DNA from: Candidatus Latescibacterota bacterium | GTDB lineage: Bacteria > Latescibacterota > UBA2968 > UBA8231 | Length of the DNA stretch: 64,000 bases | NCBI GenBank assembly: GCA_965203175.1 | Contig: OZ241867.1 | Span: forward strand, 2,560,001-2,624,000 | Direction: 5' to 3' | Part shown: positions 7,341-53,337 of the stretch, one piece after another | How the letters are laid out: each line of letters starts with the position of its first letter | How positions within the stretch are numbered: position 1 is the first letter of the stretch | Notes under the pieces: generated by a model | What the model was told of the DNA's origin: nothing | Seen by the model: only the letters and a program-made list of their open reading frames with translations | Database searches by the model: none | Program-made: the position numbers and the translations under genes

Positions 7341-8066
7341 ATGGACGTCTATACCCAAGCTGACCTACAGAGCCATTTAGAGGCCCTCGGAGTCGAAGCG
7401 GGGGATATGCTCTTTATCCATTCCTCGTTCAAAAGCTTGGGGCCTGTCGCCGGTGGAGCGCAGACTGTGGTCGGTGCGCTCCAGGCAGCAGTCGGCCCCG
7501 ACGGGCTTATCCTGATGCCCTCGTTCCACCTGATAGAGCGGAGTGAACGAGCGCGCCGTTGGGACTGGGCGACTACCCGTTCGACCGTGGGGTGGCTGAC
7601 CGAGTTCTTTCGCTGTTTACCCGATACTTATCGCTCGGATCATTACTCTCACTCGGTAGCGGCCCGAGGGTGTGGCGCGGCGGATTTCGTTGCAGATCAC
7701 TTACGCCAGGAGGGCCATACGTCGCCTTGGGACTTGGCTCCTTGGGGACGGACCTATGGCACTCACTCGCCCATGTTCCGCGCCTATCGACGCGGCGGCA
7801 AAATTCTCATGCTGGGCGTCGATTACCAGACTTCTACCTACATCCATCTGGTCGAAGTGCTCTACTGGCATCACTTGCGCCGAACCGATCCCCAAGCCGC
7901 TTATCCCGCTTTGGACCGCCCTCGTCTAGGGGACTTTTGGGATGCTACTGGTCCGCTGACACGGGGCCTCGTCGGCGCGTCTCCGTGCCGACTTTTTGCC
8001 ATAGATACGTATGTCGATACTCTGCTGGCCGAGGTCGTGGCAAACCCCGAACGCTATTTGGCCTGA
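7341..8066 (+). CDS. AAC(3)/YokD family N-acetyltransferase (Antibiotic_NAT)
   Basis: LGVEAGDMLFIHSSFKSLG, LILMPSF, RSDHYSHSVAARG, GGKILMLGV...STYIHLVE. Confidence 0.85.
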   Translation: MDVYTQADLQSHLEALGVEAGDMLFIHSSFKSLGPVAGGAQTVVGALQAAVGPDGLILMPSFHLIERSERARRWDWATTRSTVGWLTEFFRCLPDTYRSDHYSHSVAARGCGAADFVADHLRQEGHTSPWDLAPWGRTYGTHSPMFRAYRRGGKILMLGVDYQTSTYIHLVEVLYWHHLRRTDPQAAYPALDRPRLGDFWDATGPLTRGLVGASPCRLFAIDTYVDTLLAEVVANPERYLA

Positions 8067-39525: not shown

Positions 39526-39574
39526 GGTCTCCTCCTTTTTTGCTACTAATAAAGGTCGGCGCGTGGATTGGAAC

Positions 39575-39620
39575 AAAAAAGCGGGGAGCTAGCGGACGAA
39601 AAGTCCACCAGCTCCCCGCT
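39575..39620 (-). terminator. Intrinsic terminator after the small HTH gene
   Basis: Minus strand AGCGGGGAGCTGGTGGAC-TTTTC-GTCCGCTAGCTCCCCGC-TTTTTT. Confidence 0.8.
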
Positions 39621-40569: not shown

Positions 40570-40890
40570 ATGTATTCGATTGGTTTAGCCATGCGGCTGC
40601 GACCCAATGCGTACGCCGAGTACAAACAGGCCCACGACGACCTGTGGCCCGAAATCGCCGACAGCATGACCGACAACGAGGTCAGCATGGCCATCTACCG
40701 CTTGGACGAATACCTCATCATCCACGCGGTCGCCCCCACCGAGGAAGACTGGCTCAAGAGCCGTCAAGTGCCCATCCTAGAAGAGTGGTACGACTATATG
40801 GCCCAGTTGTTGGAGACCGACGCCGAAGGGGAGATCATCTTCGAGGAGCTGCCTGAAGCCTTTGCCTTCGGCATGTTCAAGGAAGCGTGA
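40570..40890 (+). CDS. L-rhamnose mutarotase (RhaM/DUF718) family protein
   Basis: MRLRPNAYAEYKQAHDDLWPEI...EEWYDYMAQLLE; AAGGAG RBS. Confidence 0.78.
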   Translation: MYSIGLAMRLRPNAYAEYKQAHDDLWPEIADSMTDNEVSMAIYRLDEYLIIHAVAPTEEDWLKSRQVPILEEWYDYMAQLLETDAEGEIIFEELPEAFAFGMFKEA

Positions 40891-40893
40891 ACG

Positions 40894-41697
40894 CTAGGCC
40901 GCTTCCACCGGGTTTTGCAGTCGGCCGATCTGGTCTATTTCCACGATTACCTCGTCGCCGGCGGTAAGCCATACAGGCGGTTTGCGCGCAAAACCCACGC
41001 CCTGCGGGGTGCCGGTGAGGATGACCGTGCCTGGCAGCAAAGTCGTATCTTCGCTGAGGAATTCGATCAGTTCGGCGACCGTGAAAATCATGTCGCCGGT
41101 GGTGTGGTCCTGCATGGTCGCGCCGTTGAGGATCGTGCGGATGCCGAGGGTTTGTGGGTCGGGGATTTCATCGGCTGTGACTAGCACCGGCCCCAAAGGG
41201 CAAAAGGTGTCAAAGCCCTTGCCGCGGATCCACTGGCCGCCACCGCCGTGGAGCTGCCACTTGCGGGCCGAGACGTCGTTGGCGCACGTGTATCCAAGCA
41301 CATAGCTGAGGGCATCGGCTCGCGCCACATTGCGGGCGGCCTTGCCGATCACCACCGCGAGCTCGCACTCGTAGTCAACTTCCGGGCCGCGGCGACAGCA
41401 GGCTGGCAGCAGGATCGGGTCGCCCGGGCCGCAGACCGCGCTCGTGGGCTTGGCAAAGACGACGGGCTGCTCGGGCGGCTCGAGGCCGGATTCGGCCGCG
41501 TGCTCGCGGTAGTTTAACCCAATGCAGAAAATGTTGGTCGGATCGAGCGGGGCGAGCAGTCTTTTGACGGCCACCTGTTCGCCCGTGGGCGCTAGTTCTG
41601 CGAAGAGATCGCCGGCGAGTACGGAGGCTTGGCCCCCCTCGGCTTCGAGGCCCCAACGGACGGCGTCGTCAGCGTCGATAAAGCGGATGATGCGCAT
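40894..41697 (-). CDS. Fumarylacetoacetate hydrolase family protein
   Basis: FCIGLNYREHA, VDYECEL, NDVSAR, GKGFDTFCPLGP, ILTGTPQGVG. Confidence 0.93.
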   Translation of the reverse strand: MRIIRFIDADDAVRWGLEAEGGQASVLAGDLFAELAPTGEQVAVKRLLAPLDPTNIFCIGLNYREHAAESGLEPPEQPVVFAKPTSAVCGPGDPILLPACCRRGPEVDYECELAVVIGKAARNVARADALSYVLGYTCANDVSARKWQLHGGGGQWIRGKGFDTFCPLGPVLVTADEIPDPQTLGIRTILNGATMQDHTTGDMIFTVAELIEFLSEDTTLLPGTVILTGTPQGVGFARKPPVWLTAGDEVIVEIDQIGRLQNPVEAA

Positions 41698-41836: not shown

Positions 41837-43249
41837 GTGTCCCAAAACGTCAGCGAAGAACACGTACGCAAAATAGTCGAAGAAGTGGTGCAGCGCGTCG
41901 TCAGCGGCGGAGACGGCAGCGGGAGTGGGGACACCGGTGTCTTCGCGACGGTTGACGCGGCCGTCCAAGGCGCTATTCGCGCCCAGCAGCAGTTGGTGGC
42001 CTTGTCACTGGAGGAGCGCAAAAAGATCGTCGAGGCCCTCCGGCAGACGGCGCACGTCCACGCCGAGGAATTTTCGCGGCGGGCCTTGGCCGAGACGGGC
42101 ATGGGGCGGTTGGAAGACAAAATCATCAAGCACCAAGTCGCGGCCGACACGACGCCCGGCGTCGAAGACCTAGAGGCCACTTCGTGGACTGGTGACCACG
42201 GGCTGACCGTGGTTGAAATGGCTCCTTACGGGGTCATCGGCGCGGTCACCCCATCGACCCATCCCGTGCCGACGATGGTCAACAACGCCATTTGCATTGT
42301 CGCCGCGGGCAACTCGGTCGTCTTCAACGTGCATCCGGCGGGCAGAAAGGTCTCCATGTTCGCGGTGGGCTTGATCAATCAGGCCATCGTCGCAGTTGGC
42401 GGACCGGCCAACTTGGTGACCGCGGTCGAAACGCCGACCATTGAGACGGCCAGCGAATTGTTCAATCACCCAGATATCCGCCTGCTGCTGGTCACAGGCG
42501 GGCCAGGCGTGGCCAAGGCCGCGATGGGTAGCCCCAAAAAGGCCATCGTCGCCGGCCCGGGCAATCCGCCGGTGGTCGTCGATGAAACGGCCGATTTGGC
42601 CAAGGCCGCGCGCGACATCATCGACGGGGGAGGCTTTGACAACAACATTCTCTGCATCGGCGAGAAGCAGGTCTTTGCCGTCACTTCCATTGCCGACGAG
42701 CTCAAGCGGCTGATGGTCCAATACAATGCGTATGAACTCGACACGCGGCAGATCGAGGCGCTCGCACAGGTGGCCTTTGTCGAAGGGCCGGACGGGCATC
42801 TCGTAGCCAACCGCGAATTGGTGGGGCGCGACGCCGCCGTGTTGGGCGAGCGCATCGGCCTCCGGCTCGACTCGTCGCTGCGCATGCTCATTGGCGAGAC
42901 CGACGCCAACCACGTCTTCGTGCGCGAGGAGCAGATGATGCCTTTTCTGCCGATCGTGCGGATGCCCAACGTCGACCAAGCCATCCGCGAGGCCGTCATC
43001 TCCGAGCACGGCTACGGGCACACGGCCGTGATCCATTCGCGCAACATCGAAAACATGCACAACATGGCCTGCGCCGTGGATACCACCATTTTCGTCAAGA
43101 ACGGTCCTTCCTACGCCGGGGTTGGCTTGGGCGGCGAGGGGTTTGGGACGTACTCGATTGCCGGGCCTACGGGCGAGGGGCTGACGTCGCCGCGCACCTT
43201 TACCCGCCAGCGCCGCTGCGCTCTCGTGGACTACTTCCGCATCACCTGA
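41837..43249 (+). CDS. CoA-acylating aldehyde dehydrogenase (EutE/PduP family) with N-terminal encapsulation peptide
   Basis: ETGMGRLEDK, TPGVEDL, TGGPGV, GPGNPP, FDNNILCIGEK (catalytic Cys), EQMMP, GEGLTSPRTFTRQRRC. Confidence 0.95.
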   Translation: MSQNVSEEHVRKIVEEVVQRVVSGGDGSGSGDTGVFATVDAAVQGAIRAQQQLVALSLEERKKIVEALRQTAHVHAEEFSRRALAETGMGRLEDKIIKHQVAADTTPGVEDLEATSWTGDHGLTVVEMAPYGVIGAVTPSTHPVPTMVNNAICIVAAGNSVVFNVHPAGRKVSMFAVGLINQAIVAVGGPANLVTAVETPTIETASELFNHPDIRLLLVTGGPGVAKAAMGSPKKAIVAGPGNPPVVVDETADLAKAARDIIDGGGFDNNILCIGEKQVFAVTSIADELKRLMVQYNAYELDTRQIEALAQVAFVEGPDGHLVANRELVGRDAAVLGERIGLRLDSSLRMLIGETDANHVFVREEQMMPFLPIVRMPNVDQAIREAVISEHGYGHTAVIHSRNIENMHNMACAVDTTIFVKNGPSYAGVGLGGEGFGTYSIAGPTGEGLTSPRTFTRQRRCALVDYFRIT

Positions 43250-43563
43250 TGCTCTTGGGCCAAGTCAAAGGGCATCTGGTTTCCACGGCCAAGGTCCCGA
43301 GCCTGCACGGCAAGAAGCTCTTAGTCGTCGAAATCGCGTCGGTGCGCGAGCACGGTCTGGTGCTGACAGGGCGGGATATGGTTTGCATCGACGCGGTGCA
43401 AGCGGGCAAGGGCGAGTTGGTGATTTTGGTGCAGGGCAGTTCGTCGCGGATCGCCCCGAACTTGGGCGATGTGCCGACCGACGCGGTAATCGTCGGGATT
43501 GTCGATTCGCTACAGGCTATGGGTAAGGACTTCGACTGTCGGCAACTGAGCCGCGAAGGGTAG
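43249..43563 (+). CDS. BMC-P pentameric vertex protein (EutN/CcmL family)
   Basis: MLLGQVKGHLVSTAK...LHGKKLLVV...DAVQAGKGELV...GSSSR...PTDAVIVGIVD. Confidence 0.95.
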   Translation: MLLGQVKGHLVSTAKVPSLHGKKLLVVEIASVREHGLVLTGRDMVCIDAVQAGKGELVILVQGSSSRIAPNLGDVPTDAVIVGIVDSLQAMGKDFDCRQLSREG

Positions 43564-43566
43564 GCG

Positions 43567-44247
43567 ATGAACGTTGCACCAGCGGCTGGATTGGACCGCA
43601 AGCAGATTGAGGCGCTGGTGCGTCGGGTGGTGTACGATCACCTGCCCGATGCTCAGCTAGAGCAGGCACCCTCAGCTCCGAGGCTGGTCGTCAATATGTC
43701 CGCCCGCCACGTCCACCTCAATCGAGAGGCGCTGGACGCGCTCTTTGGCGCGGGTGCCGAGCTGACCGTGCAGAAGGCCCTGTACCAGGAAAGCGCTTTT
43801 GCCGCCGAGCAGACGGTGTCGGTTTTTGGCCCGCGCAAGCAGGTGATTCCCAGTGTGCGAATCCTCGGCCCATTGCGCGATTACAACCAGGTGGAGTTGG
43901 CCTTTACGGACGCCCGCTATTTGGGCATTGACGCGCCGGTGCGGCTCAGCGGCAACATCGAGGGGACGCCGGGCTGCTACTTGGTGGGGCCAGCTGGGGG
44001 GCTGGAATTGGATCACGGGGTGATTCGGGCCGCCCGCCACGTGCATTTAAACCCGGAAGAGGCCGCGTACTACGGAGTCGGGCCGGGAGACTTGCTGCGG
44101 CTGGTAGTAGAAGGCGATCAGGGCGGGGTGCTGGAAGGGTTGATCTGCCGAGTCAGCGAGCGCGAACGCCTAGAAGTTCACATCGATACGGACGAGGGCA
44201 ATGCGATTGATTTGGTACACGCCCGCAAGGTATATTTAGAGCGTTGA
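43567..44247 (+). CDS. pduL: Phosphate propanoyltransferase (BMC phosphotransacylase)
   Basis: SARHVHL, VRILGPLR, QVELAFTDA, APVRLSG, RHVHL, HIDTDEGNA. Confidence 0.93.
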   Translation: MNVAPAAGLDRKQIEALVRRVVYDHLPDAQLEQAPSAPRLVVNMSARHVHLNREALDALFGAGAELTVQKALYQESAFAAEQTVSVFGPRKQVIPSVRILGPLRDYNQVELAFTDARYLGIDAPVRLSGNIEGTPGCYLVGPAGGLELDHGVIRAARHVHLNPEEAAYYGVGPGDLLRLVVEGDQGGVLEGLICRVSERERLEVHIDTDEGNAIDLVHARKVYLER

Positions 44248-44285
44248 AACGCAAAAATCCGCACAATTACTTCAGGAGGTAAGGG

Positions 44286-44846
44286 ATGTCGGATGCAATA
44301 GGCATGGTAGAAACCGTGGGGCTAGTCGGGGTCGTCGAGGCCGGCGACGCCATGGCCAAGGCCGCTAGCGTACAGCTTTTGGGCTGGGACCGAGTCGGCT
44401 CTGGCTTGGTGACTGTGTTTTGCGCGGGCGATGTGGCGGCCGTCAAGTCGGCCGTGGATGCTGGCTCGACTGCTGCTGCCAAGGTCGGGGAGGTGCATTC
44501 GGTCCACGTGATTCCCCGCCCGCACAGCGAACTGACGACCGTCGTGCCCGAACGCGGCGACAGCGGCGACAGCGATGGCCGCGTCCGCGCCTTGGGTCTT
44601 ATTGAGACGAAGGGGTCCATCGGCGTGATCGAAGCGGCCGACGCCATGAGCAAGGCCGCCAATGTGGAGGTCGTCAAGCTGCAGGACATCGGCGGCGGGT
44701 ACATCACCGTCATAGTTAGTGGCGACGTCGGCTCGGTGCAGGCTTCGGTCAGCGCCGGTGCCGAGGCGGCCGAGCGCGTGGGCGAGCTCGTATCGCAACA
44801 CGTGATTCCCCGCCCGCACGACGATCTCGTCGCGCTGTATTTGTAG
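44286..44846 (+). CDS. BMC shell protein with two tandem BMC domains (BMC-T)
   Basis: Two copies of A(I/L)G(M/L)xETxG...DAMxKAA...GDVxxV...HVIPRPH. Confidence 0.93.
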   Translation: MSDAIGMVETVGLVGVVEAGDAMAKAASVQLLGWDRVGSGLVTVFCAGDVAAVKSAVDAGSTAAAKVGEVHSVHVIPRPHSELTTVVPERGDSGDSDGRVRALGLIETKGSIGVIEAADAMSKAANVEVVKLQDIGGGYITVIVSGDVGSVQASVSAGAEAAERVGELVSQHVIPRPHDDLVALYL

Positions 44847-44858
44847 AGGAGACAAATA

Positions 44859-45122
44859 ATGAAAGCATTGGGTATGGTCGAGACTCGCGGTTTGGTCTGC
44901 GTCGTCGAAGCCCTCGACGCCATGTTGAAGACCGCGGACGTGAGCTATGCGGGCCAAAAGCGCGTGGGTAGCGGCCTAATCGCCGTGCTGGTCGAAGGCG
45001 ACGTAGCGGCTGTCAAAGCGGCCGTAGATGCGGGAGCGCAAGCCGCCCAGCGCATCGGCGAGCTGCGCAGCGTCCACGTGATTCCCCGTCCAACTGAGGG
45101 ACTGACAGACCACCTTGGTTAG
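44859..45122 (+). CDS. BMC-H hexameric shell protein (EutM/PduA-like)
   Basis: ALGMVETRG...DAMLKTADV...[10 protein letters not shown]...HVIPRP. Confidence 0.96.
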
Positions 45123-45126
45123 CTAG

Positions 45127-45573
45127 GTGACCGAGGCTTTGCACATCGACGCTCCGGTCGTCACCGGCGATTTGCTCGGGCGCGAGCACAAGGGCGAGCG
45201 GACGCTCAGCGTGTCCCCCAGCGCCATCTTGACGCCGACGGCTTGGGACTACATCCGCCAGCACCGCTTGCAGCTAAGTCGCGGCGAGGCCGTTGCCGCT
45301 GCCGAGGCCGTTGCGGACGCGGGCCGGTGCGAGCATCCCGACCGCGCCTGCGGCTGCGAGCACGAGGAATTTGGCTCGGGGTACGTCGAGCCAGCGCACT
45401 GCGGCGATTGCGCCGTCCACGAGCGCAAGAAGGCGGGCGACCCCGAGGCGAATTGTGAGGGTTGCAATCGCTACAAGACGCTTTTGCAACAAATCGAAAA
45501 GGGCCAAGCCTCCGATCCAGAAGCCTTAATTGAGCAGATCACCGAGCTAGTAATTCACCGGCTGGCGGACTAA
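45127..45573 (+). CDS. BMC-associated Cys-rich hypothetical protein
   Basis: AILTPTAWDY module, seven Cys, C-terminal amphipathic helix. Confidence 0.75.
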   Translation: MTEALHIDAPVVTGDLLGREHKGERTLSVSPSAILTPTAWDYIRQHRLQLSRGEAVAAAEAVADAGRCEHPDRACGCEHEEFGSGYVEPAHCGDCAVHERKKAGDPEANCEGCNRYKTLLQQIEKGQASDPEALIEQITELVIHRLAD

Positions 45574-45576
45574 GCT

Positions 45577-46161
45577 ATGGCGGGCGACCCGGCAGTCGGC
45601 ATGATCGAGGTGCAGGGCGTGGCCGCTGCCATTGTGGGTGCGGATGCGGCCTGCAAGGCTGCGGAAGTGAAGCTCGCAGGTTGGTCCTCAATCGGCGGTT
45701 ATACCACGGCTTTTTTTACTGGGTCGATCAGCGATGTAGCCGCGGCGCTGCGAAGCGGCGAGGAAGCGGCCCGCGAAATAATAGAACACGTAGTGGCCGC
45801 GCCTTTACTCCAACCCGCCGCTGCTTGCAGTCATTTCATCGATTTTCCGGTCCGGTCCGACAGCGACTTTCCCGCCGGTGCCTTGGGATTGGTCGAGACG
45901 CGCGGCTATGGGGCTCACATTCACACGAATGATCAGATGGTTAAGACGGCTGCCGTCGCGGTCGTCAACGTGCTGACGGTCCACGACCGCGTGGTGTGTT
46001 CGCTGGTCTTGGGAGACGTTGGGGCTGTCAAAGAAGCCATAGCCGTCGCGCAAAAGTTGCTCGGGGACTGCGAGCACTTGTTGGGCACGGCCCTGGTTCC
46101 GCAGCCGCGGCCCGAGGTCTTGGCTGCATACGCCGCGCCGATGGGAGGTGGTGGTGTCTAG
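45577..46161 (+). CDS. Divergent two-domain BMC shell protein
   Basis: AVGMIEVQG...DAACKAA and ALGLVETRG...DQMVKTA...GDVGAV...VPQP. Confidence 0.9.
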   Translation: MAGDPAVGMIEVQGVAAAIVGADAACKAAEVKLAGWSSIGGYTTAFFTGSISDVAAALRSGEEAAREIIEHVVAAPLLQPAAACSHFIDFPVRSDSDFPAGALGLVETRGYGAHIHTNDQMVKTAAVAVVNVLTVHDRVVCSLVLGDVGAVKEAIAVAQKLLGDCEHLLGTALVPQPRPEVLAAYAAPMGGGGV

Positions 46162-47302
46162 CGGGGCGATTGGCATGCTGGAGACGCGCGGGATGGCGTC
46201 GCTGATGGCTTCTACCGATGCCATGCTCAAGGCCGCTGAAGTACAACTCTGCGGTCGGCACGGTATTGGCTCGGGTTGGCTCACTGCGGTAATCGCCGGT
46301 CAAGTAGCTGATGTGGAGGCGGCCATTCGCGTTGGCGAGGTCGAGGCGAACCGCACCGGTGAACTGATCGGCGCGCAAGTGGTGCCACGGCCAGACGCGC
46401 GCGCCATGGACGCCATGCCCCACGCAACCGGTCTTGGTGCCGAACAGGTACAGCCGCAGGCAATTGGCTTATTGGAGACGCAGGGCCTGACGCCGCTGGT
46501 GGCCGGTGCCGACGCCATGCTCAAGGCCGCCCAAGTGGAGCTAGGGGGTTGGGCCTTCATCGGGGGCGCGCTGTGTCACGCGCCGATCTTTGGCGATGTA
46601 GCGGCCGTGCAGACGGCGTTAGAAGTGGGCCGGCAAGCAGCCGAGCGGATTGGCACCGTGTACGCGACTCTTGTTTTGCCCCAGCCCAGCGAGGGGCTAG
46701 GTCCTCTGTTGCCGCCCGCGCCAGCGGTCGAGCTGCGCTCCACCGGTGCCTTGGGCCTCATAGAGACCATTGGTTACGCCTCGGTCGTGGGCAGTGCGGA
46801 CGCCATGCTCAAGGCCGCGGATGTCCAAATCGAGCGCTTGAGCATTGGTAGCGGCGGGCGGATTACCGCGCTGGCTACCGGCCATCTCGACGACGTGCAG
46901 GCCGCAGTGCGCGCCGGTGCCGAGGCAGCCACGGCTTTGGGGGAGTTCGACGCCTCGGCCGTAGTCTCGCGGCCCGATCCCGCGCTCGTCGCCCGTTTTG
47001 CCACTGCGGCCGAGGGCCTTGGCGCGGGTGCGCGGCAGGCCATGGGGCTGATTGAGACGCGCAGTACCGTGGCCTTGGTGCGAGCCGTCGATCGGATGCT
47101 CAAGGCCGCAGCCGTCGAATACGAGGGAGCCTATAAGGTGGGGTACTACTTGACGGCCGCGGTCGTGCGCGGCGATGTGGGTGCCGTGCAGGTCGCGATA
47201 GATGCGGGTCGGAAGGAGGCTGTTGAACACGGGGAACTGGTTTCGGCCTACGCAATTCCGCAGCTCTACAGCGGCCTCGAAGGCCGCCTGCCGCACGTTT
47301 AG
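46154..47302 (+). CDS. BMC shell protein with four tandem BMC domains
   Basis: Four AxG(M/L)(L/I)ET...D(A/R)MLKAA repeats; GGAGG RBS 5 nt before GTG 46154. Confidence 0.9.
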   Translation: MSSGAIGMLETRGMASLMASTDAMLKAAEVQLCGRHGIGSGWLTAVIAGQVADVEAAIRVGEVEANRTGELIGAQVVPRPDARAMDAMPHATGLGAEQVQPQAIGLLETQGLTPLVAGADAMLKAAQVELGGWAFIGGALCHAPIFGDVAAVQTALEVGRQAAERIGTVYATLVLPQPSEGLGPLLPPAPAVELRSTGALGLIETIGYASVVGSADAMLKAADVQIERLSIGSGGRITALATGHLDDVQAAVRAGAEAATALGEFDASAVVSRPDPALVARFATAAEGLGAGARQAMGLIETRSTVALVRAVDRMLKAAAVEYEGAYKVGYYLTAAVVRGDVGAVQVAIDAGRKEAVEHGELVSAYAIPQLYSGLEGRLPHV

Positions 47303-47316
47303 CGAGGACGCGAAAA

Positions 47317-48498
47317 ATGATTCGGATTGACGATGCAGTAATTACCGCGCAGACCTTGGAGGGCCGCCTAGCTGGCGAACGGCAGGTCGAGATCGGCCCG
47401 GGGTCTAAACTGACGCCCTCGGCACAGGACTTTTTGCACGCCCAAGGCATTGAAATCGTGCGCCGGGAAGCCAGCGGCCAAGCTCCTCCAACGACAACAC
47501 TGGCACCAGCACCGGCACCGGCGGGTCCTCGCGCGGCCGAACGCCAGCCATTTGCTGGCATCTTCTGCCCCAATGTCGTCCTTTTCGACAGTCAGAACGA
47601 GATCAACCACGCCGAGATGGAGCGCTACATCAACTGGTTAATCGAGGTTGGGATCCACGGGCTGTACCCCAACGCCAGCACTGGCGAGTTCGCGCGCCTG
47701 TCGCAGAAGGAGCGCCAAGACGTGGTGCGGCTGGTCTGCGAGGTCAACAAGGGACGCGTACCCGTACTGGCCGGAGCCAGCGAGGCCAGCTTGCGCGACG
47801 TGCTCAAGATGGCCGAATACTACGCCTCGCTCGGCGTGGATGCCATTGCACTGATGCCCCCCTATTACTACGAAATTTCCACTGAGAGCCTCTTTGAGTA
47901 CTTCGCCGAAATCGCCGGGGAATCGCCGCTGGATATCCTGCTGTGCAATATCCCGCAATTTACCCAAGAGCTGTCGATAGATTTGCTGGAGCGGCTCTTG
48001 CCCTACGATCGGATTTTCGGCATCAAGGACTCCAGCCGCGACCTGCCGAGGCTGCTCAACACCATGAACTGCCTGCGCCAACAGCGCCCCGACTACGTGG
48101 TGATGACTGGTTGCGAGGAGATCGTGTTTCCCTCGGTGCTCATGGGAGCCAACGGAGGCACCATCGCCACTTCGGGTATCGTCCCGGAAGTCATTGTCGA
48201 GCTTTATGAAAAGGCCAAAAGCGATGACATTGAGCGGGCCCGCGAACTGCAATACCGCATCCTCGATCTCATCAACTTGATGCTCCTTGGGGTCAATTTC
48301 CCAGAGGGCTTCAAGACTGGCGTGGCGGCCCGTGGCTTTGACGTCGGCCCAGCGCGCGCGTCGAGCAGCGCGTCCGAACAGGAGTACCTGATCAAGCTAG
48401 AGGCCCAAATCAACTGCGTCCTCGCGGATATGGGCTATCCAGTCCAAGGCCCCCGCGCCTGCCCGGCGACCAACCTGCCGCCGATCGTCGGTCGCTAG
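47317..48498 (+). CDS. DHDPS/NAL-family (class I aldolase-like) protein with N-terminal BMC-associated module
   Basis: NASTGEF, MPPYY, FGIKDSS (Schiff-base Lys); extra N-terminal ~50 aa and Pro/Ala linker. Confidence 0.88.
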   Translation: MIRIDDAVITAQTLEGRLAGERQVEIGPGSKLTPSAQDFLHAQGIEIVRREASGQAPPTTTLAPAPAPAGPRAAERQPFAGIFCPNVVLFDSQNEINHAEMERYINWLIEVGIHGLYPNASTGEFARLSQKERQDVVRLVCEVNKGRVPVLAGASEASLRDVLKMAEYYASLGVDAIALMPPYYYEISTESLFEYFAEIAGESPLDILLCNIPQFTQELSIDLLERLLPYDRIFGIKDSSRDLPRLLNTMNCLRQQRPDYVVMTGCEEIVFPSVLMGANGGTIATSGIVPEVIVELYEKAKSDDIERARELQYRILDLINLMLLGVNFPEGFKTGVAARGFDVGPARASSSASEQEYLIKLEAQINCVLADMGYPVQGPRACPATNLPPIVGR

Positions 48499-49575
48499 AT
48501 GGCCCTGACGGGCGCACGCGTGTTGGTGGTCGGGGCCGGTATCATCGGCCGCTCGACGGCCTATTTCCTCGCCCGGCAAGGCGCGCAGGTCGTCCTGCTC
48601 GACGAGGGGATCCCTACAGGCTCGCCCACGAGCCGGGCCTCGTTGGGCGTCCTCACCCACTGCAACGGCGGCGACAATCCCTACGCCCAGCTTTTCCGCG
48701 ACGGTCACGCTTTGCACGCCCGGCTGGCCCGCGACCTAGCCGAAGACGTGGGCGCAGACGTGGGTTGGCGTCCCCTCGGCGGTATCGATCTTTTTGCCGA
48801 CCCATCCCAGCTAGAGGAGGTATGGCGCTTCAACCACGAGCGCGGCTGTCGGGTCGAGCGGCTCGACGAGCGGGCCTTGCGCGATGCGGAGCCGGGGTTG
48901 GACGACGGTGGTGAGGGGCTGTATTTTGCCGATGATCATCGGGTGGATCCCCTCAAGTTGGGCGCGGCGCTTTGGGCGGCGGCCGTACAGCAGGGTGCGT
49001 CTGCTGCTTGGGGTGCGCGCGTCTGGCGCATTGCCCAAGAAGGCGAGACCGTCGAGGTCGCCACCAGTCGCGAAATTTACCGCGCCGACTTTGCGGTGTT
49101 GGCGGCTGGGGCGTGGACCGGTGGCTTGGCAGCGCAGCTCGGTGCCCAAGTTGCGCTGCGTCCGGTGCGGGGCCAACAAGCGCGTTTTGTAGGTGCCCCA
49201 TTGCGTCACTTAGTGAGGATAAACGGACGCCACTTCATTCCAGACGGCGGCGAAACCATCGTGGGAGCGACGTCGGAGGAGGTCGGCTTTCGGTTGGAGA
49301 CGACCCGTGCAGCCGCTGAGCAATTTGCCTCGGAGGTGCGCTCTGCACTGGGGAACTGCTTGCCGCTGTCGCGCCAGCAGGCCGGTCTGCGGCCCAAGCC
49401 CCGAGGCGGGCGTCCGCTCATCGGTCCGCTGACGGATGCGCCGCGCGTTTTCGTGGCCTCTGGGCACTACAAAAACGGCGTCTTGCTAGGCCCGATTACC
49501 GGCCAAATCGTCGCCCGTTGGATCGCCGAGGGAACCCCGGGGCGCGATATGCGCCGCTTCGCACCCGAGCGTTGA
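48499..49575 (+). CDS. FAD-dependent amino acid oxidase (DAO/ThiO glycine oxidase family)
   Basis: VGAGIIG, LAAGAW, PVRGQ, GLRP, SGHYKNGVLLGP. Confidence 0.88.
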   Translation: MALTGARVLVVGAGIIGRSTAYFLARQGAQVVLLDEGIPTGSPTSRASLGVLTHCNGGDNPYAQLFRDGHALHARLARDLAEDVGADVGWRPLGGIDLFADPSQLEEVWRFNHERGCRVERLDERALRDAEPGLDDGGEGLYFADDHRVDPLKLGAALWAAAVQQGASAAWGARVWRIAQEGETVEVATSREIYRADFAVLAAGAWTGGLAAQLGAQVALRPVRGQQARFVGAPLRHLVRINGRHFIPDGGETIVGATSEEVGFRLETTRAAAEQFASEVRSALGNCLPLSRQQAGLRPKPRGGRPLIGPLTDAPRVFVASGHYKNGVLLGPITGQIVARWIAEGTPGRDMRRFAPER

Positions 49576-49608
49576 ATTCACTGCCACTAAACACAGTTGA
49601 GGTTAAAC

Positions 49609-50550
49609 ATGCCATTGCAAAAAGAAGACCTACTCGCCGTGCTAAACTCGGTTACCTCCATTCCGGTGGTCCCTTTTCGCGGCGGGCAAATCGACTACGA
49701 GGCCCACGCCAAGAACATCAACTACTTGATGGAGAACAATCACTTGGACGGCGCCCGGCCCCGGGTGATTGGCATCGCCGGCACCAGCTTGATCCACCAC
49801 ATTAGCGCGGATGAGCAAGTGCGGTTGTTGGGCTTTACCGGCCAGCAGATGGGGGGACGCGGGGTGCTGATGTCCGGGCTTGCTCCCAATCCGGTTGGGG
49901 ATGCCGAGCGGTTGATCGAGCGGGAGGCCGCGCTCGAATATCCCCCGGATGTCTATCTCGTCATGCCGCTTACGGGCGTGGCCAGTCCAGAGGGCATTTT
50001 CGCGTACTACGTGGATTTTGCCGAGCGGTTGGGGCGTTCGTGCGGGGCCAAGTTGCTCTACTACCTGCGCAACCAAGCCGAGCGCGAGATAGCCGTGCGG
50101 CTGATGAACGAGTCCGAGCACTTCGTGGGGTTGAAGATCGGCACTACGGTTGATGATGTTGAGCCGATTGTCGCGGGTGTGGAAGAGGGGGCTGCGTTGG
50201 TGATTTGGGGCGTGGGGGATCGCTCGACTGGGCCGGCTGAGCGCGGCACCAAGGGGCATACGTCGGGGATTAACGTGGCCTTTGCCCGCGCTTCAGACGA
50301 GATCAACAACGCCCAGCGTCGAGGTGATTTTGCGACCTCGCAGCAGATTGAAGACAAGCTTGCGGCTCTAGAGGGAATTCGCTTCCGCGATGGCCGTATG
50401 TACAACTACTCGGCTGTGGTTGAGGCCATGCACTTGGGGGGGTTCAGCGATGTGGATGGCGGCGAGGGTGGTCCGTTCAATCCTCGGGTGCCTAAGGAAG
50501 TGGCAGAGGAAGTGGCTGCGGCCATCGCCGATATTGTGGACTATCACTAG
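49609..50550 (+). CDS. Divergent DHDPS-family protein (KdgD-like lyase)
   Basis: SIPVVPF...IDYE, LLYY, FVGLKIG, GHTSG...AQRRGDF. Confidence 0.7.
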   Translation: MPLQKEDLLAVLNSVTSIPVVPFRGGQIDYEAHAKNINYLMENNHLDGARPRVIGIAGTSLIHHISADEQVRLLGFTGQQMGGRGVLMSGLAPNPVGDAERLIEREAALEYPPDVYLVMPLTGVASPEGIFAYYVDFAERLGRSCGAKLLYYLRNQAEREIAVRLMNESEHFVGLKIGTTVDDVEPIVAGVEEGAALVIWGVGDRSTGPAERGTKGHTSGINVAFARASDEINNAQRRGDFATSQQIEDKLAALEGIRFRDGRMYNYSAVVEAMHLGGFSDVDGGEGGPFNPRVPKEVAEEVAAAIADIVDYH

Positions 50551-50849
50551 CCCTCGTTGCGCAGCCGCTCTAGATAGGCCGCCCATTCGACGGGGAGCAG
50601 GTGTTGCTTTTGGCTGTTGCAGTGCTTGCAGCAAGGCACCACGTTGGACTTGGTGGTGCGGCCGCCGCGGATGAGCGGCACTACGTGATCCATGGTCAGT
50701 TCATCGGGCGGGAATGACTGCTGGCAGTAGTGACATTGGCCAGCAGCCCGTTTGCGCTTCCACCATTGGGAACGGCGCAGTTCCTTGGCCTTGTTTTTCT
50801 CTCGGGCGACGTGCTCGGCGTCGGCTGGGACGAAGTATGTGTTTTCCAT
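50547..50849 (-). CDS. Small HNH endonuclease
   Basis: CHYC...LTMDHVVPLIRGG...NVVPCCKHCNSQK. Confidence 0.88.
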   Translation of the reverse strand: MENTYFVPADAEHVAREKNKAKELRRSQWWKRKRAAGQCHYCQQSFPPDELTMDHVVPLIRGGRTTKSNVVPCCKHCNSQKQHLLPVEWAAYLERLRNEG

Positions 50850-51012
50850 GCGAAAGCAAGATAGCGCAGAATGGGCATAGCACAAATGAACGCCAGCGAA
50901 GCCGATACCAGAGGCGAGCTCATTTGCGATGCTCTAGCGCTTGCAATAGGTGCAAGGAGGCTATTGACGCTATGCCATCGGCCATGCTGCGGCGAGTTTT
51001 TGCGAGAAAGGT

Positions 51013-51924
51013 ATGATGGGTAATTTCTCGCCACAAACAATTGAAGCTCTGGCGATCACTATTACTGGTGGTTCTTTCTCAGATTCCACCAGTCCTGTTC
51101 CTAGCAAATATCGTGCTGGTTGGGAATTGGAACAGTTCTTCAGAGGGATCGAGGTATCGTTTCAAATAGATAAAAGGTCTCGTGTCTCTGCTGTTCGCGA
51201 GTGCTTGGAGGACTTGAATATTAGCAATCCCACCAAGATAAAAGAGGCCATTCAAGCTATATGTGATCCACGTGAATACCTTGATGAAGAAGACGATCTC
51301 AGGGAAATCGTGGTTTATCTAAATAAACGGTTGAAATTCGACGGGTTTGAGCTTTGGGAGGAGGGAGGGTTCTACAGATTAGTATCAACCAATATAGTAG
51401 GAGCTCCCGCCAATGATCTCCAAGCCACTATTAATCTAACTGACTATGACTCGGTTAAGACGGACTTTGAGAGAGCCGTAAATGCCATCGAAAAAGATCC
51501 AGAAGACGCTATAACTGCTGCCTGTTCCATTGTTGAGAGCGTTTGTAAGTGCATCCTATATCAGATGAAGAAATCTTACCCCAAAAAGCAGGACATCAAG
51601 GGTTTGGTCACTGAAGTAGGAAAGCACCTGAATCTCTCACCGGCACGAAGTGACCTCCCTTCTGAGATATCTGGCGATATCAAGCAAATTTTGTCTGGCT
51701 TGATTAGCGTCACTTCAGGTATCGGTGCACTGAGAACACATAGTGGAGACGCGCACGGACGTGGCAGAAAGAGAGTACCTGTGGATGCTCGTATCGCTCG
51801 TCTAGCAATCCACGCTGCCAGCACTATATCGCTCTTCTATATCGAGACATGGAACCGCATTACGGCGGTAAAAAAAGATAATGATAAAGAGGCGAGAAAA
51901 AGCGATCCAAACAGCGATAACTAG
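51013..51924 (+). CDS. Abortive infection family protein (AbiJ-like N-terminus + Abi_C domain)
   Basis: DPEDAITAACSIVESVCKCIL, KQILSGL...GIGALRTHSGDAHGRG, ARLAIHAAST; visibly AT-richer than flanks. Confidence 0.8.
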   Translation: MMGNFSPQTIEALAITITGGSFSDSTSPVPSKYRAGWELEQFFRGIEVSFQIDKRSRVSAVRECLEDLNISNPTKIKEAIQAICDPREYLDEEDDLREIVVYLNKRLKFDGFELWEEGGFYRLVSTNIVGAPANDLQATINLTDYDSVKTDFERAVNAIEKDPEDAITAACSIVESVCKCILYQMKKSYPKKQDIKGLVTEVGKHLNLSPARSDLPSEISGDIKQILSGLISVTSGIGALRTHSGDAHGRGRKRVPVDARIARLAIHAASTISLFYIETWNRITAVKKDNDKEARKSDPNSDN

Positions 51925-51942
51925 CAGATAATCAGTTCAGGT

Positions 51943-52170
51943 TCACGGCAAATAATCTTGGAAATGCTCAAGATGTTCATCGTCATCGGCAAGGATCATC
52001 AACTTGCCCTTTCCAAGGCCAAACTGACGCGCCCGATTCTGAGTACTACTTTTTACTAACCGCGCAACAGTCTCGCTGCCGCGTGTCAACTCGATTTCCT
52101 CGTCCGGTTGTAGTTGATCAATCAATTCATTAAGCCGCGAACTCGCTTCTTTGATCGAGATCGTCGTCAT
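51943..52170 (-). CDS. Phd/YefM-type antitoxin (orphan)
   Basis: MTTISIKEASSRLNELI...IELTRGSETVARLV...RQFGLGKGKL...DDDEHLEHFQDY. Confidence 0.8.
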   Translation of the reverse strand: MTTISIKEASSRLNELIDQLQPDEEIELTRGSETVARLVKSSTQNRARQFGLGKGKLMILADDDEHLEHFQDYLP

Positions 52171-52200
52171 AGTGGATATTCCAAGAGTGTAAATATACGA

Positions 52201-52506
52201 TTAGACAGGCTCATAACGCTGGACGCTGATCTCATTTGCACGGGCACGCATCTGCGAGGCGTCATACCAAGCCTGCATCCTCAGCAGCATGTCCATACCC
52301 ACGCCGAATGCCTTCTCGATACGCAGTGCCATCTCAGGTGATAGCGCGGCGTGGCCGTTTAGTAAATCCGAAAGCGTTGCCCGCCGAACCCCTAGAATCT
52401 CAGCCGCTTTTGTCACGTTCAGATCCAACTCCTCGATGATCTCGGTGCGAATGAAATCACCTGGATGCGAAGGGGTCATGTTCACTTTGATGCCGTCGGT
52501 AGCCAT
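52201..52506 (-). CDS. higA: HigA family antitoxin
   Basis: HPGDFIRTEII...AAEILGVRRATLSDLLNG...LSPEMALRIEKAFG...WYD; TAATG coupling. Confidence 0.9.
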   Translation of the reverse strand: MATDGIKVNMTPSHPGDFIRTEIIEELDLNVTKAAEILGVRRATLSDLLNGHAALSPEMALRIEKAFGVGMDMLLRMQAWYDASQMRARANEISVQRYEPV

Positions 52507-52740
52507 TAGTGGTAATCCTCCAAGTTTAAGCGGTCGATATAGCCGTCTTCTTCTGCAAAGGTGATCCGCCAATTTCCGGACACGAGGTGCATCGGCAATG
52601 AATCTGTCTAATCCCTCTGCCAAAATCAGTGCCGTCAGGATCTTACGCACTCGATCAACCAAGTTGTGTTGCAGGAACCGAGGATTATCGTCTTCAATCA
52701 ATCGGCGCAATCCTCGGTGGTGGATGGAGCGAATGATCAT
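52506..52740 (-). pseudogene. higB: HigB toxin with internal frameshifting deletion
   Basis: MIIRSIHHRGLRRL...FIADAP, then in another frame VSGNWRITFAEEDGYIDRLNLEDYH*; the central HxLxG...WS segment is missing. Confidence 0.82.
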
Positions 52741-52746
52741 GTTCTA

Positions 52747-52775
52747 AGTGTACGGTAATACCGTTCATTTTACAA
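52747..52775 (-). promoter_or_regulatory. higBA promoter with palindromic operator
   Basis: Minus strand TTGTAA-17-TACACT; ACGGTA-A-TACCGT palindrome in the spacer. Confidence 0.65.
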
Positions 52776-52877
52776 GTTTCTCCTCGCGCCGAAAGATCAT
52801 CTCTGGCACTCACCAACGGAAACCCTCAGATTTGCTTATGGATCAGGCTGTTGTCGGCACATCGGTTAGCACCGCAT

Positions 52878-53000
52878 CTTGGATCTGATCAATACCACTG
52901 TCACCTTTCCCGCGATTGGGTGGCCTGTTGGTCTTACGTGAAAACTTCAAAAACCATCGAGGTCTATTATGCAGGCAGTCGTGAAAACGCCCCGTATTGA
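52878..53000 (+). pseudogene. C-terminal remnant of a RelE-like toxin
   Basis: LGSDQYHCHLSRDWVACWSYVKTSKTIEVYYAGSRENAPY*; no ATG in frame nearby upstream; overlaps the antitoxin start. Confidence 0.7.
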
Positions 53001-53337
53001 GATCAATATTAAGGGAGAGATTCCCGATAGGTTAATGTCTGTACTGGAGGAAGAGTACGGCGAACAGATTCAACTTTTGGAAGATAACGACGAAGAGGCC
53101 GTGAACGTCTTTGAGACCGACTGGTATCGGGATATCAAGTCAAAGATGACGCCGGGCGACAATCTGAAGATCTATCGGGAGAATCGCGGTTTGACTCAGG
53201 CCAAGTTAGGTGAGATGCTCGGTGCTGTTCCCCGTCAGCATATCTCAAACATGGAGAGAGGGGTGCGGTCGATTAGCCTAAAAACAGCCCGGAAGCTGGC
53301 AGAGCTATTCAAGGTATCGCCTGAGAAATTCATTTGA
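52969..53337 (+). CDS. XRE-family HTH antitoxin
   Basis: TPGDNLKIYRENRGLTQAKLGEMLG...HISNMERG. Confidence 0.88.
   Translation: MQAVVKTPRIEINIKGEIPDRLMSVLEEEYGEQIQLLEDNDEEAVNVFETDWYRDIKSKMTPGDNLKIYRENRGLTQAKLGEMLGAVPRQHISNMERGVRSISLKTARKLAELFKVSPEKFI

Follow-up and report, generated by a model that had tools for sequence, protein, structure and literature searches.

A microcompartment locus in a Candidatus Latescibacterota genome matches the catalogued MUF2 type, with its predicted signature aldolase encoded elsewhere

Which enzyme makes the aldehyde for a bacterial microcompartment (BMC) whose gene cluster encodes a shell, an aldehyde dehydrogenase and a phosphotransacylase, and no classical signature enzyme? 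The question is raised by a locus at 41837..50550 of the window, a 64,000-nucleotide stretch of a Candidatus Latescibacterota genome (G000), for which the original prediction was a candidate new BMC type. Eleven packed, co-directional ORFs on the + strand are confirmed there, separated in order by -1, 3, 38, 12, 4, 3, -14, 14, 0 and 21 bases, and Pfam bears out the families and coordinates. The core cargo gene comes first (41837..43249, PF00171) and encodes a CoA-acylating aldehyde dehydrogenase of the EutE/PduP type (AldDH), which scores 648 bits against NF011927 (cut-off 403), shares 53% identity with E. coli EutE, and begins with an amphipathic helix (hydrophobic moment 0.63) that resembles an encapsulation peptide (EP) and matches the EP profile weakly. 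A BMC-P vertex protein (43249..43563, PF03319, EutN_CcmL) precedes the phosphotransacylase (PTAC) PduL (43567..44247, PF06130, above cut-off for NF011652), whose N-terminal EP-like helix gives a weak profile match at residues 15-21. Four shell genes hold nine PF00936 domains by Pfam (x2, x1, x2, x4): a two-domain protein (44286..44846), a BMC-H hexamer protein (44859..45122), a double-domain orthologue of Ts_hazel (45577..46161) and a quadruple BMC-H fusion (46148..47302). Between the second and third lies a gene for a Cys-rich protein (45127..45573) that matches no Pfam family. The last three genes encode DHDPS1, a class I aldolase-like protein of the DHDPS/NAL family (47317..48498; DHDPS, E 1e-53), a DAO/ThiO-like flavoenzyme (48499..49575; PF01266, DAO, E 7e-57) and DHDPS2, a divergent DHDPS-family protein (49597..50550; DHDPS, E 2e-9).

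Among these 11 genes, none matches EutBC, PduCDE, a glycyl-radical enzyme, a class II aldolase, an Fe-ADH or acetate kinase. The predicted absence of classical enzymes holds for the locus only; elsewhere the genome encodes a class II aldolase, acetate kinase and four FucO/EutG-like alcohol dehydrogenases. Among 71 fetched loci with DHDPS1, in which genes were counted within 10 kb and some contigs stop early, gene order is kept for AldDH in 46, the Cys-rich gene in 48 and the four-domain shell gene in 68. A promoter and terminator scan of the locus gave chance-level results only. Contigs from three RNA-library runs of related strains span most of the locus; transcription is not inferable from them.

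Judged by orthologue identity with catalogue proteins, used in place of the colour-clade HMMs of BMC Caller, this is the main locus of MUF2, a catalogued and functionally unsolved microcompartment (Sutter et al. 2021, PMC8217296). Orthologues in the related loci L025, L065 and L037 are exactly the catalogue proteins CME20_01425, CME25_02550 and CME28_01115. Locus L025, syntenic at 66-94% identity, is the catalogued MUF2 locus of CME20, and its CME20_01425, labelled MUF2 (main), hazel, is 75% identical to the Ts_hazel orthologue here. As the catalogue text describes for MUF2, the main locus carries AldDH, with its N-terminal EP-like helix, and PTAC, a double (Ts_hazel) and a quadruple BMC-H fusion, and, between BMC-H and BMC-Ts, a Cys-rich protein with a C-terminal EP-like helix and an N-terminal domain that is found again in a PF00701 aldolase nearby (PMC8217296, supplement file 4). 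Satellites supply further parts of the described set: a PF00596 aldolase with a C-terminal EP-like tail beside a BMC-H; a BMC-P triplet plus extra copy, matched here by count only, with one in the locus and three together at G000:C1:3690118-3690940; and a lone extended BMC-H of 149 aa (G000:C1:160670-161119), matched by its C-terminal extension to the one that the catalogue places in clade H_darkrose. The differences are that three of the four BMC-P genes sit in a satellite, that DHDPS1 of this genome carries a Tyr-to-Cys replacement, that the hosts are, by record titles, Ca. Latescibacterota rather than mostly Gemmatimonadetes, and that the type is class-wide (AldDH in 120/132 genomes), compared with 13 loci in the catalogue. 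The claim of a new organelle therefore falls on both of the counts originally named as refuting it: the type is already catalogued, and the genome encodes, outside the locus, a classical signature enzyme whose tail resembles an EP.

The catalogue places the MUF2 AldDH nearest to that of the PVM organelle, and on substrate its MUF2 description goes no further than "similar to PVM" (PMC8217296). PVM loci are described from Planctomycetes and Verrucomicrobia only, with two BMC-H and three BMC-P; aerobic breakdown of L-rhamnose and L-fucose by way of lactaldehyde is reported for them (Axen 2014, PMC4207490; Sutter 2021, PMC8217296). The aldolase of that type cleaves rhamnulose- or fuculose-1-phosphate. 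Shared with the published PVM accounts are an acylating AldDH, PduL, acetate kinase, a BMC-P triplet and, as the signature enzyme, a class II aldolase, likened through those accounts. This locus has neither the PVM host range nor its shell set; it belongs to another phylum, with scattered genes, multi-domain shell fusions and an extra class I aldolase, and it lacks a DeoR regulator and a lactate dehydrogenase-like gene, in a genome lacking fucose isomerase. The SPU type finds no counterpart, PF01791 (DeoC aldolase) and PF02502 (RpiB) being absent among the 11 genes. For the EUT and GRM types, tblastn with E. coli EutB, EutC and PflB gave no hit in this genome (93% complete). The glycyl-radical enzyme model PF02901 gave no match in a search whose control matched 3/14, and the PduC diol dehydratase model PF02286 matched 0/11 genomes, its control matching 0/14.

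By prediction, the missing signature enzyme is the satellite-encoded class II aldolase (PF00596; G000:C1:4484217-4484939), a putative cargo protein with an EP-like C-terminal tail. Its gene, 1.9 Mb from the main locus, starts 820 bases after a BMC-H gene (G000:C1:4483109-4483396), and it is the only PF00596 protein of the genome. An EP profile trained solely on tails of the Cys-rich protein matches the aldolase tail at 13.7 bits (iE 6e-5 among 20 proteins) and has no match in DHDPS1, the DAO-like protein, DHDPS2 or the neighbouring FAH-family hydrolase. A genome-wide EP scan recovered only the Cys-rich protein and this aldolase; because it missed the AldDH and PduL peptides, it is unable to exclude other cargo. 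Hydrophobic moment is an unspecific sign of an EP, the N-terminal helix of the aldolase also reaching 0.66. Among 132 genomes of the class, which are related and so not independent, 120 have the BMC AldDH, 119 the class II aldolase and 110 both. In the sister families f2 to f4 the aldolase gene lies within 3 kb of AldDH in 55/56 genomes, and in two shell-less genomes (G067, G069) the aldolase has neither the tail nor an adjoining BMC-H gene.

What would this aldolase cleave? From pathway content, the likeliest substrate is L-rhamnulose-1-phosphate, yielding lactaldehyde. The reading we hold somewhat more probable than its negation is that of an MUF2 metabolosome with scattered genes, in which the aldolase cleaves this compound and probably also phosphates of the DHAP shunt, DHDPS1 is optional, and DAO, DHDPS2 and FAH are neighbours. 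L-rhamnose would be isomerised in the cytosol by RhaI and phosphorylated by a RhaB-like kinase; the encapsulated aldolase would then release DHAP and L-lactaldehyde, which AldDH would convert to lactyl-CoA, PduL to lactyl-phosphate, and acetate kinase to lactate with ATP formation, as in the PVM organelle. The genome has RhaI above cut-off, a RhaB-like kinase and RhaM, and no RhaD. Across the class, RhaI and RhaA occur in 53 genomes each and never together, jointly in 106/132, and a rhamnose isomerase is present in 98 of the 110 genomes with both BMC AldDH and class II aldolase.

Several observations speak against this reading. The other 12 of these 110 genomes have neither rhamnose isomerase nor a strong FucI match, and five of them consist of one or two contigs at 93-100% completeness. 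At 474 bits the kinase falls short of the rhamnulokinase cut-off (528), neither the operon nor the neighbourhood of the aldolase gene holds a gene for rhamnose catabolism, and the aldolase passes no NCBIfam cut-off and is 33% identical to FucA and 25% to RhaD. Genomes G062 and G063, which have neither this aldolase nor a rhamnose isomerase, retain the organelle and DHDPS1, and G071 and G072 retain the organelle with neither aldolase. A RhaM-like mutarotase gene (40570..40890, + strand, PF05336), tail-to-tail with the FAH gene, was rejected as support: it is distant (24% identity to E. coli RhaM, against 64% for a close orthologue elsewhere in the genome), outside the operon, and present in 18/71 DHDPS1 loci. 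The phosphorylative fucose route was also rejected, since this genome has no FucI; in the class FucI has strong matches in 4/132 genomes and weak ones, to which no function is assigned, in 37 more.

A plausible second input to MUF2 is the DHAP shunt, or 5-deoxyribose salvage, described as MtnP or MtnK, MtnA/DrdI and Ald2/DrdA (PMC10986504, PMC6079011). By gene content this genome resembles the published scheme, with MtnP, MtnA and a single class II aldolase that is FucA-like, and with neither MtnB nor MtnD. It differs in that the three genes are unclustered (mtnA at C1:5923629, mtnP at C1:1889940, the aldolase at C1:4484217) and in the EP-like tail of the aldolase, whose gene adjoins a shell gene. 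From 5'-deoxyadenosine and MTA, the enzymes MtnP and MtnA would form 5-deoxy- or methylthio-ribulose-1-phosphate, which the same aldolase probably also takes. In a wider interpretation, which we hold rather unlikely, MUF2 would be an aldehyde hub fed by several inputs, and its ancestral role throughout the class would be to complete the DHAP shunt with an encapsulated Ald2-type aldolase. We think it rather unlikely that the shunt ketose phosphate is the main substrate and rhamnose secondary, with the organelle confining acetaldehyde or methylthioacetaldehyde on its way to acyl-CoA, acyl-phosphate and ATP. Consistent with a main role for the shunt, MtnA occurs in 130/132 genomes and in 109 of the 110 with both AldDH and aldolase, MTAP is above cut-off in 5/5 tested genomes, MtnD is found in 0/132, and RuBisCO-family matches occur in 18/132. 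Four single-contig genomes (G000, G004, G025, G035) have no RuBisCO-family match and also no MtnB, because the BMC aldolase is their sole PF00596 protein; the last three have neither a rhamnose isomerase nor FucI. Of the aldolase's six closest homologues in a plasmid collection, two are encoded in clusters that also contain mtnA and a nucleoside phosphorylase gene, and DrdA and FucA share the same inferred stereochemistry as given in PMC6079011. However, MtnA is near-universal in the class, shell-less genomes included, and its co-occurrence with the organelle therefore does not discriminate. The mtnA gene is far from organelle genes wherever coordinates were compared, with housekeeping context in the four flanks inspected, and one of the six plasmid-collection homologues lies in a fucose operon and another adjoins an FGGY kinase gene. 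A tree of 22 class II aldolases has long branches and does not separate function, and the flux of endogenous by-products may be too small to require an organelle. A blastn search with mtnA against E. coli genomes, seeking Ald2, gave no match.

DHDPS1 is probably accessory cargo, because it was lost along with the shell genes (loci L123 to L126). Cleavage of sugar acids of the 2-keto-3-deoxy type, the first route originally proposed, survives for it as an accessory source of aldehyde: its nearest relatives of solved structure are aldolases of this kind, PDB 4uxd (KDG aldolase, E 7e-37) and YagE (E 3e-32). As a general signature enzyme it does not stand, and we consider it improbable that DHDPS1 is the organelle's aldolase acting on 2-keto-3-deoxy acids. 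DHDPS1 is nearly confined to genomes with BMC AldDH (76/79, the other three being 58-87% complete), and it is the only candidate in the loci of G062 and G063; yet 44/120 AldDH genomes lack it (the class II aldolase being present in 40 of these), and it occurs in 0/3 genomes of family f2 and 2/31 of f4. The genome has 90 enolase-superfamily matches, with no dehydratase gene at the locus. DHDPS1 shares with the DHDPS/NAL family the GSTG-type motif and the Schiff-base Lys described as conserved (PMC9795676). It differs in its extra N-terminal module, in passing no NCBIfam cut-off and, in the window's copy, in lacking the catalytic Tyr, described for the family as a proton shuttle (PMC9795676). 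Here Lys237 is kept, the Tyr is Cys210 and Gly120 is Ala; across 69 aligned copies the Lys is present in 68, and the Tyr position holds Tyr in 58 and Cys in 11, including this one. Decay of the Cys group was not supported, pooled dN/dS being 0.11 both in eight Cys copies and in 12 close Tyr copies. DHDPS1 would be an optional second source, releasing pyruvate and an aldehyde, possibly weakened in this lineage.

The N-terminal module, of 50 residues, is common to DHDPS1 and the Cys-rich protein (hhalign probability 99.2) and, within this genome, occurs in these two proteins only. A predicted complex of the two copies (Cys-rich protein 1-58, DHDPS1 1-54), bearing on an adaptor role, scored 0.00 and gives no answer either way; the predicted fold of DHDPS1 has a mean pLDDT of 57, with about 78 for the module. 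The cysteines of the Cys-rich protein stand at 68, 75, 77, 92, 95, 110 and 113. It matches TIGR02536 weakly (E 2e-4), a PDB sequence profile search found nothing, and its predicted fold has no clear match (best Z 5.6; none by Foldseek at E <= 0.001). In the ESM Atlas its best score is 0.84, with the EutQ family at 0.79, a lead only.

The original alternative, in which DAO and a DHDPS-family deaminase or aldolase feed an amino-acid-derived aldehyde to the organelle, is very improbable: both genes come next after DHDPS1, with gaps of 0 and 21 bases, and recur in 51/71 (DAO) and 47/71 (DHDPS2) DHDPS1 loci, but HNH, lonN and mntR are equally syntenic and the pair outlasts the shell. In G067 to G070, which have no PF00936 gene and have lost AldDH and DHDPS1, DAO and DHDPS2 remain side by side. 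Close orthologues are nearly missing from the 56 organelle-bearing genomes of f2 to f4 (DHDPS2 0/56; DAO 1/56, weak), and DHDPS2 is absent from the organelle-bearing G062, G063, G071 and G072. On this gene-content record the two are neighbours, not cargo, and independent of the organelle, because they are kept in four relatives that lost the hexamer shell genes, AldDH and DHDPS1. DHDPS2 keeps its Tyr155 and Lys180 invariant (48/48). DAO scores 173 bits against the ThiO model TIGR02352, below the 250.8 cut-off, and thiG, thiS, thiC and thiE gave no hit in this genome. The divergently transcribed FAH-family gene (40894..41697, - strand, PF01557), also kept after organelle loss and present in 35/71 DHDPS1 loci, is likewise a neighbour.

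The aldehyde-making enzyme of this microcompartment, encoded outside the locus, thus probably splits rhamnose and possibly SAM sugar left-overs. MUF2 function is narrowed to three assayable inputs, with two false leads, DAO and DHDPS2, removed. If the DHAP-shunt input is true, it would give microcompartments a role for which the literature searched offers no report, the word "microcompartment" having no occurrence in PMC10986504 or PMC6079011. Under the hub interpretation, acetaldehyde or methylthioacetaldehyde made from radical-SAM and MTA by-products would be confined and go on to yield ATP, which would link a microcompartment to salvage of SAM by-products and make a Schiff-base sugar-acid aldolase a cargo protein. 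Within this class of uncultured Latescibacterota nearly every genome carries the organelle, and different lineages have naturally lost the entire shell, the class II aldolase or DHDPS1.

The eleven co-directional ORFs of the locus lie exactly where they had been predicted (41837..50550), with intergenic spacing of -14 to 38 bases. Pfam models recognize Aldedh, EutN_CcmL, PTAC, DHDPS, DAO and a weak DHDPS domain, together with nine BMC domains spread over four genes; the Cys-rich ORF has no family. A search with DHDPS1 (47317..48498), the first of the two DHDPS-like proteins, returned 71 loci at 63-96% identity, mostly titled Candidatus Latescibacterota, plus Gemmatimonadetes and Handelsmanbacteria labels. 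In these loci, where some contigs stop early, the genes within 10 kb of DHDPS1 include AldDH in 46, the four-domain shell gene in 68, DAO in 51 and DHDPS2 in 47. One group has DHDPS1 with just two multi-domain shell genes, apart from AldDH. In L004 and L021, the operon is split by an insert of about 4 kb that separates the Cys-rich gene from the double-domain shell gene. An HNH protein is kept next to the locus in 48/71 cases; in the window (50547-53337) a stretch of lower GC (52-53%) comes after its gene and contains an Abi_C-domain gene along with HTH/antitoxin-like genes. Elsewhere in the window are an 897-aa fusion (36883-39576, minus strand) of an M28/DUF4910 peptidase-like region to a C-terminal aminoglycoside 3-N-acetyltransferase-family domain that scores under NCBIfam cut-offs, and a stand-alone protein of that acetyltransferase family (7341-8066).

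The original prediction proposed a candidate new BMC type, but relatives' shell proteins identical to catalogue entries match the locus to the catalogued type MUF2. Among ten sequences looked up, the double-domain shell sequences of L025, L065 and L037 are identical to CME20_01425, CME25_02550 and CME28_01115, which carry the MUF2 label in the catalogue of Sutter et al. (PMC8217296). L025 has the same FAH-to-DHDPS2 gene order as the window, at 66-94% identity. The MUF2 features taken from the catalogue's text are all found in the window's genome (G000), whose satellite shell genes on the same contig, C1, comprise three BMC-P genes (C1:3690118-3690940) and a 149-aa BMC-H (C1:160670-161119). The Cys-rich protein and DHDPS1 share a module (alignment probability 99.2) found in these two alone among 56,336 ORFs. 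By its orthologues' identity with catalogue proteins and by gene content, the locus very likely belongs to MUF2, and the catalogue's locus diagrams may already depict DAO and DHDPS2. In literature searches that covered subscription journals thinly, "MUF2" together with "microcompartment" was confined to the catalogue and its preprint, and nothing on the window locus appeared among the matches listed.

A class II aldolase with an encapsulation-peptide (EP)-like tail, the sole PF00596 gene of G000, is encoded at C1:4484217-4484939, starting 820 bases past a BMC-H gene. A profile trained solely on Cys-protein tails picks the aldolase tail at 13.7 bits, and the N-termini of PduL and AldDH weakly, with no match in DHDPS1, DAO, DHDPS2 or FAH. 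Searches of G000 gave no EutB, EutC or PflB match; for PduC, the PF02286 model matched 0 of 11 genomes and its control 0 of 14. Of the 132 genomes in the class, 120 encode the BMC AldDH, 119 the class II aldolase, 110 both and 79 DHDPS1. Judged from the gene content of relatives, the aldolase is probably the core signature enzyme of the organelle. The aldolase is separated from the satellite BMC-H by the gene of an LPG-synthase TM-region membrane protein (L072:9391-10221, equivalent to G000:C1:4483390-4484220), which overlaps its neighbors on either side and remains next to the aldolase in shell-less genomes.

Organelles of the Planctomycetes/Verrucomicrobia metabolosome (PVM) type degrade rhamnose and fucose via a class II aldolase of this sort (PMC4207490), and a BMC route for these sugars was previously proposed in other Latescibacteria (PMC4454575). 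G000 encodes RhaI above cut-off, a rhamnulokinase-like protein slightly below cut-off and a RhaM orthologue at 64%; RhaD and RhaEW were searched for there and not found, leaving the BMC aldolase as the sole candidate to carry out the cleavage. RhaI and RhaA, the two known types of rhamnose isomerase (PMC3870299), each occur in 53 of the 132 genomes and never together, and one or the other is present in 98 of the 110 genomes having both AldDH and aldolase. Rhamnose is thus favored as an organelle input, with some reservation. Against it, the other 12 genomes have neither a rhamnose isomerase nor a strong FucI, including three single-contig genomes (G004, G025, G035) whose sole PF00596 protein is the BMC aldolase, and that aldolase is closer to FucA than to RhaD. 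FucA and RhaD act on C4 epimers. In f4, one of the four families of the class, a Fucose_iso_C match turns up in 28/31 genomes, in every case a weak one (E ~1e-6 to 1e-10) and mostly in ORFs of ~550-590 aa; this protein, as a divergent isomerase, could feed the aldolase.

The chief rival input is the DHAP shunt (PMC10986504), in which MtnP/MtnA and a class II aldolase handle 5'-deoxyadenosine and MTA. MtnA occurs in 130/132 genomes, MTAP in 5/5 tested, MtnD in 0/132, and RuBisCO-family proteins in 18/132, G000 not among them; MtnB, a PF00596 member, is ruled out where the BMC aldolase is the sole PF00596 protein. Of the aldolase's six closest homologues in a plasmid collection (37-44% identity), two share a gene cluster with mtnA plus a nucleoside phosphorylase; fucose genes, an FGGY kinase and BMC genes accompany one each, and the sixth is uninformative. 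Against the shunt, mtnA is not linked to organelle genes and is near-universal in the class, so its presence does not discriminate. The shunt is unlikely as the main role of the organelle, and as one input it is a tentative proposal. Shunt or methylthioribose terms never occurred alongside "microcompartment" among the literature matches listed, again with thin coverage of subscription journals. Class II aldolases act on several substrates (PMC6079011), so rhamnose and shunt inputs may both be real. In Brevibacillus laterosporus (L134:530-5828), genes for a nucleoside phosphorylase, nucleoside transporter, DeoR-type regulator and mtnA accompany a class II aldolase with a C-terminal EP-like helix, with no shell gene within 5 kb. 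Acetoanaerobium noterae (L135:4921-10223) has a PVM-like locus whose EP-tailed class II aldolase is 43% identical to the MUF2 aldolase; the locus also holds a DeoR regulator, AldDH, PduL and four BMC-H-type genes.

Among solved structures, DHDPS1 is closest to 4xky, to the KDG aldolase 4uxd and to YagE. We aligned the window copy with those of 68/71 loci, leaving out three partial loci; the Schiff-base Lys is kept in 68 of the 69 rows. The catalytic Tyr, the proton shuttle in these aldolases (PMC9795676), is kept in 58 rows; the other 11, the window copy among them, have Cys. Ala in place of Gly120 is seen in the window copy alone. The DHDPS1 copies of L008 and G063 are of the Tyr type. Cys-type copies have a dN/dS of 0.11, so purifying selection persists. 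DHDPS1 is missing from 44 of the 120 AldDH genomes, 40 of which have the class II aldolase, and is present in six of the ten AldDH genomes that lack that aldolase. G062 and G063 are near-complete examples in which DHDPS1 is present and a BMC-type class II aldolase is missing; the tails inspected from their class II aldolases have no EP-like helix. The organelle loci of G071 and G072 (L080, L081) have AldDH, PduL, the Cys protein and shell genes, but DHDPS1, a BMC-type class II aldolase and, within the locus, a BMC-P of the grey/orange type are missing; RhaA and an aldolase-SDR fusion of 657 aa occur in both genomes. From this distribution DHDPS1 is a fairly likely cargo protein, best taken as optional; in some lineages it may be the chief aldehyde source. 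In L031 (G098), DHDPS1 and RhaI are each in two frames, possibly assembly errors. Catabolic enzymes of the sugar-acid type have undergone a very large expansion of paralogues in G000, with 90 matches to PF13378, an enolase-superfamily domain (88 above cut-off), and 14 to the DHDPS family. E. coli queries found no thiC, thiE, thiG, thiH or thiS match in G000, and thiamine auxotrophy is possible.

Four genomes (G067, G068, G069 and G070; 92-96% complete, 1-10 contigs) have zero PF00936 matches, as does the fragmented G065. At the locus site the four have lytB, FAH, DAO, DHDPS2, HNH, lonN and mntR with no gap; AldDH to DHDPS1 was lost as a single block, and FAH, DAO and DHDPS2 were retained. G067 and G069 retain an aldolase without the tail and without the BMC-H neighbor. 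The shell-less state thus links DHDPS1 to the organelle, and the tail of the aldolase likewise. The proposal that DAO and a DHDPS-family enzyme together make the aldehyde is largely refuted, since both genes outlast the shell, and their being cargo is highly improbable. The synteny of these last two genes holds near DHDPS1 (DAO in 51/71 loci, DHDPS2 in 47/71) and also where the organelle is gone. DHDPS2 occurs in 62/132 genomes and DAO in 72/132, all in f1, the window's family, except for one weak DAO match.

In f2-f4, no more than 3 kb separates the aldolase from AldDH in 55/56 genomes, the two genes being on separate contigs in the 56th, and an acetate kinase orthologue is present in 5/7 main loci fetched from these families. 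This arrangement suggests an ancestral PVM-like locus whose genes became dispersed in f1, the family of the window.
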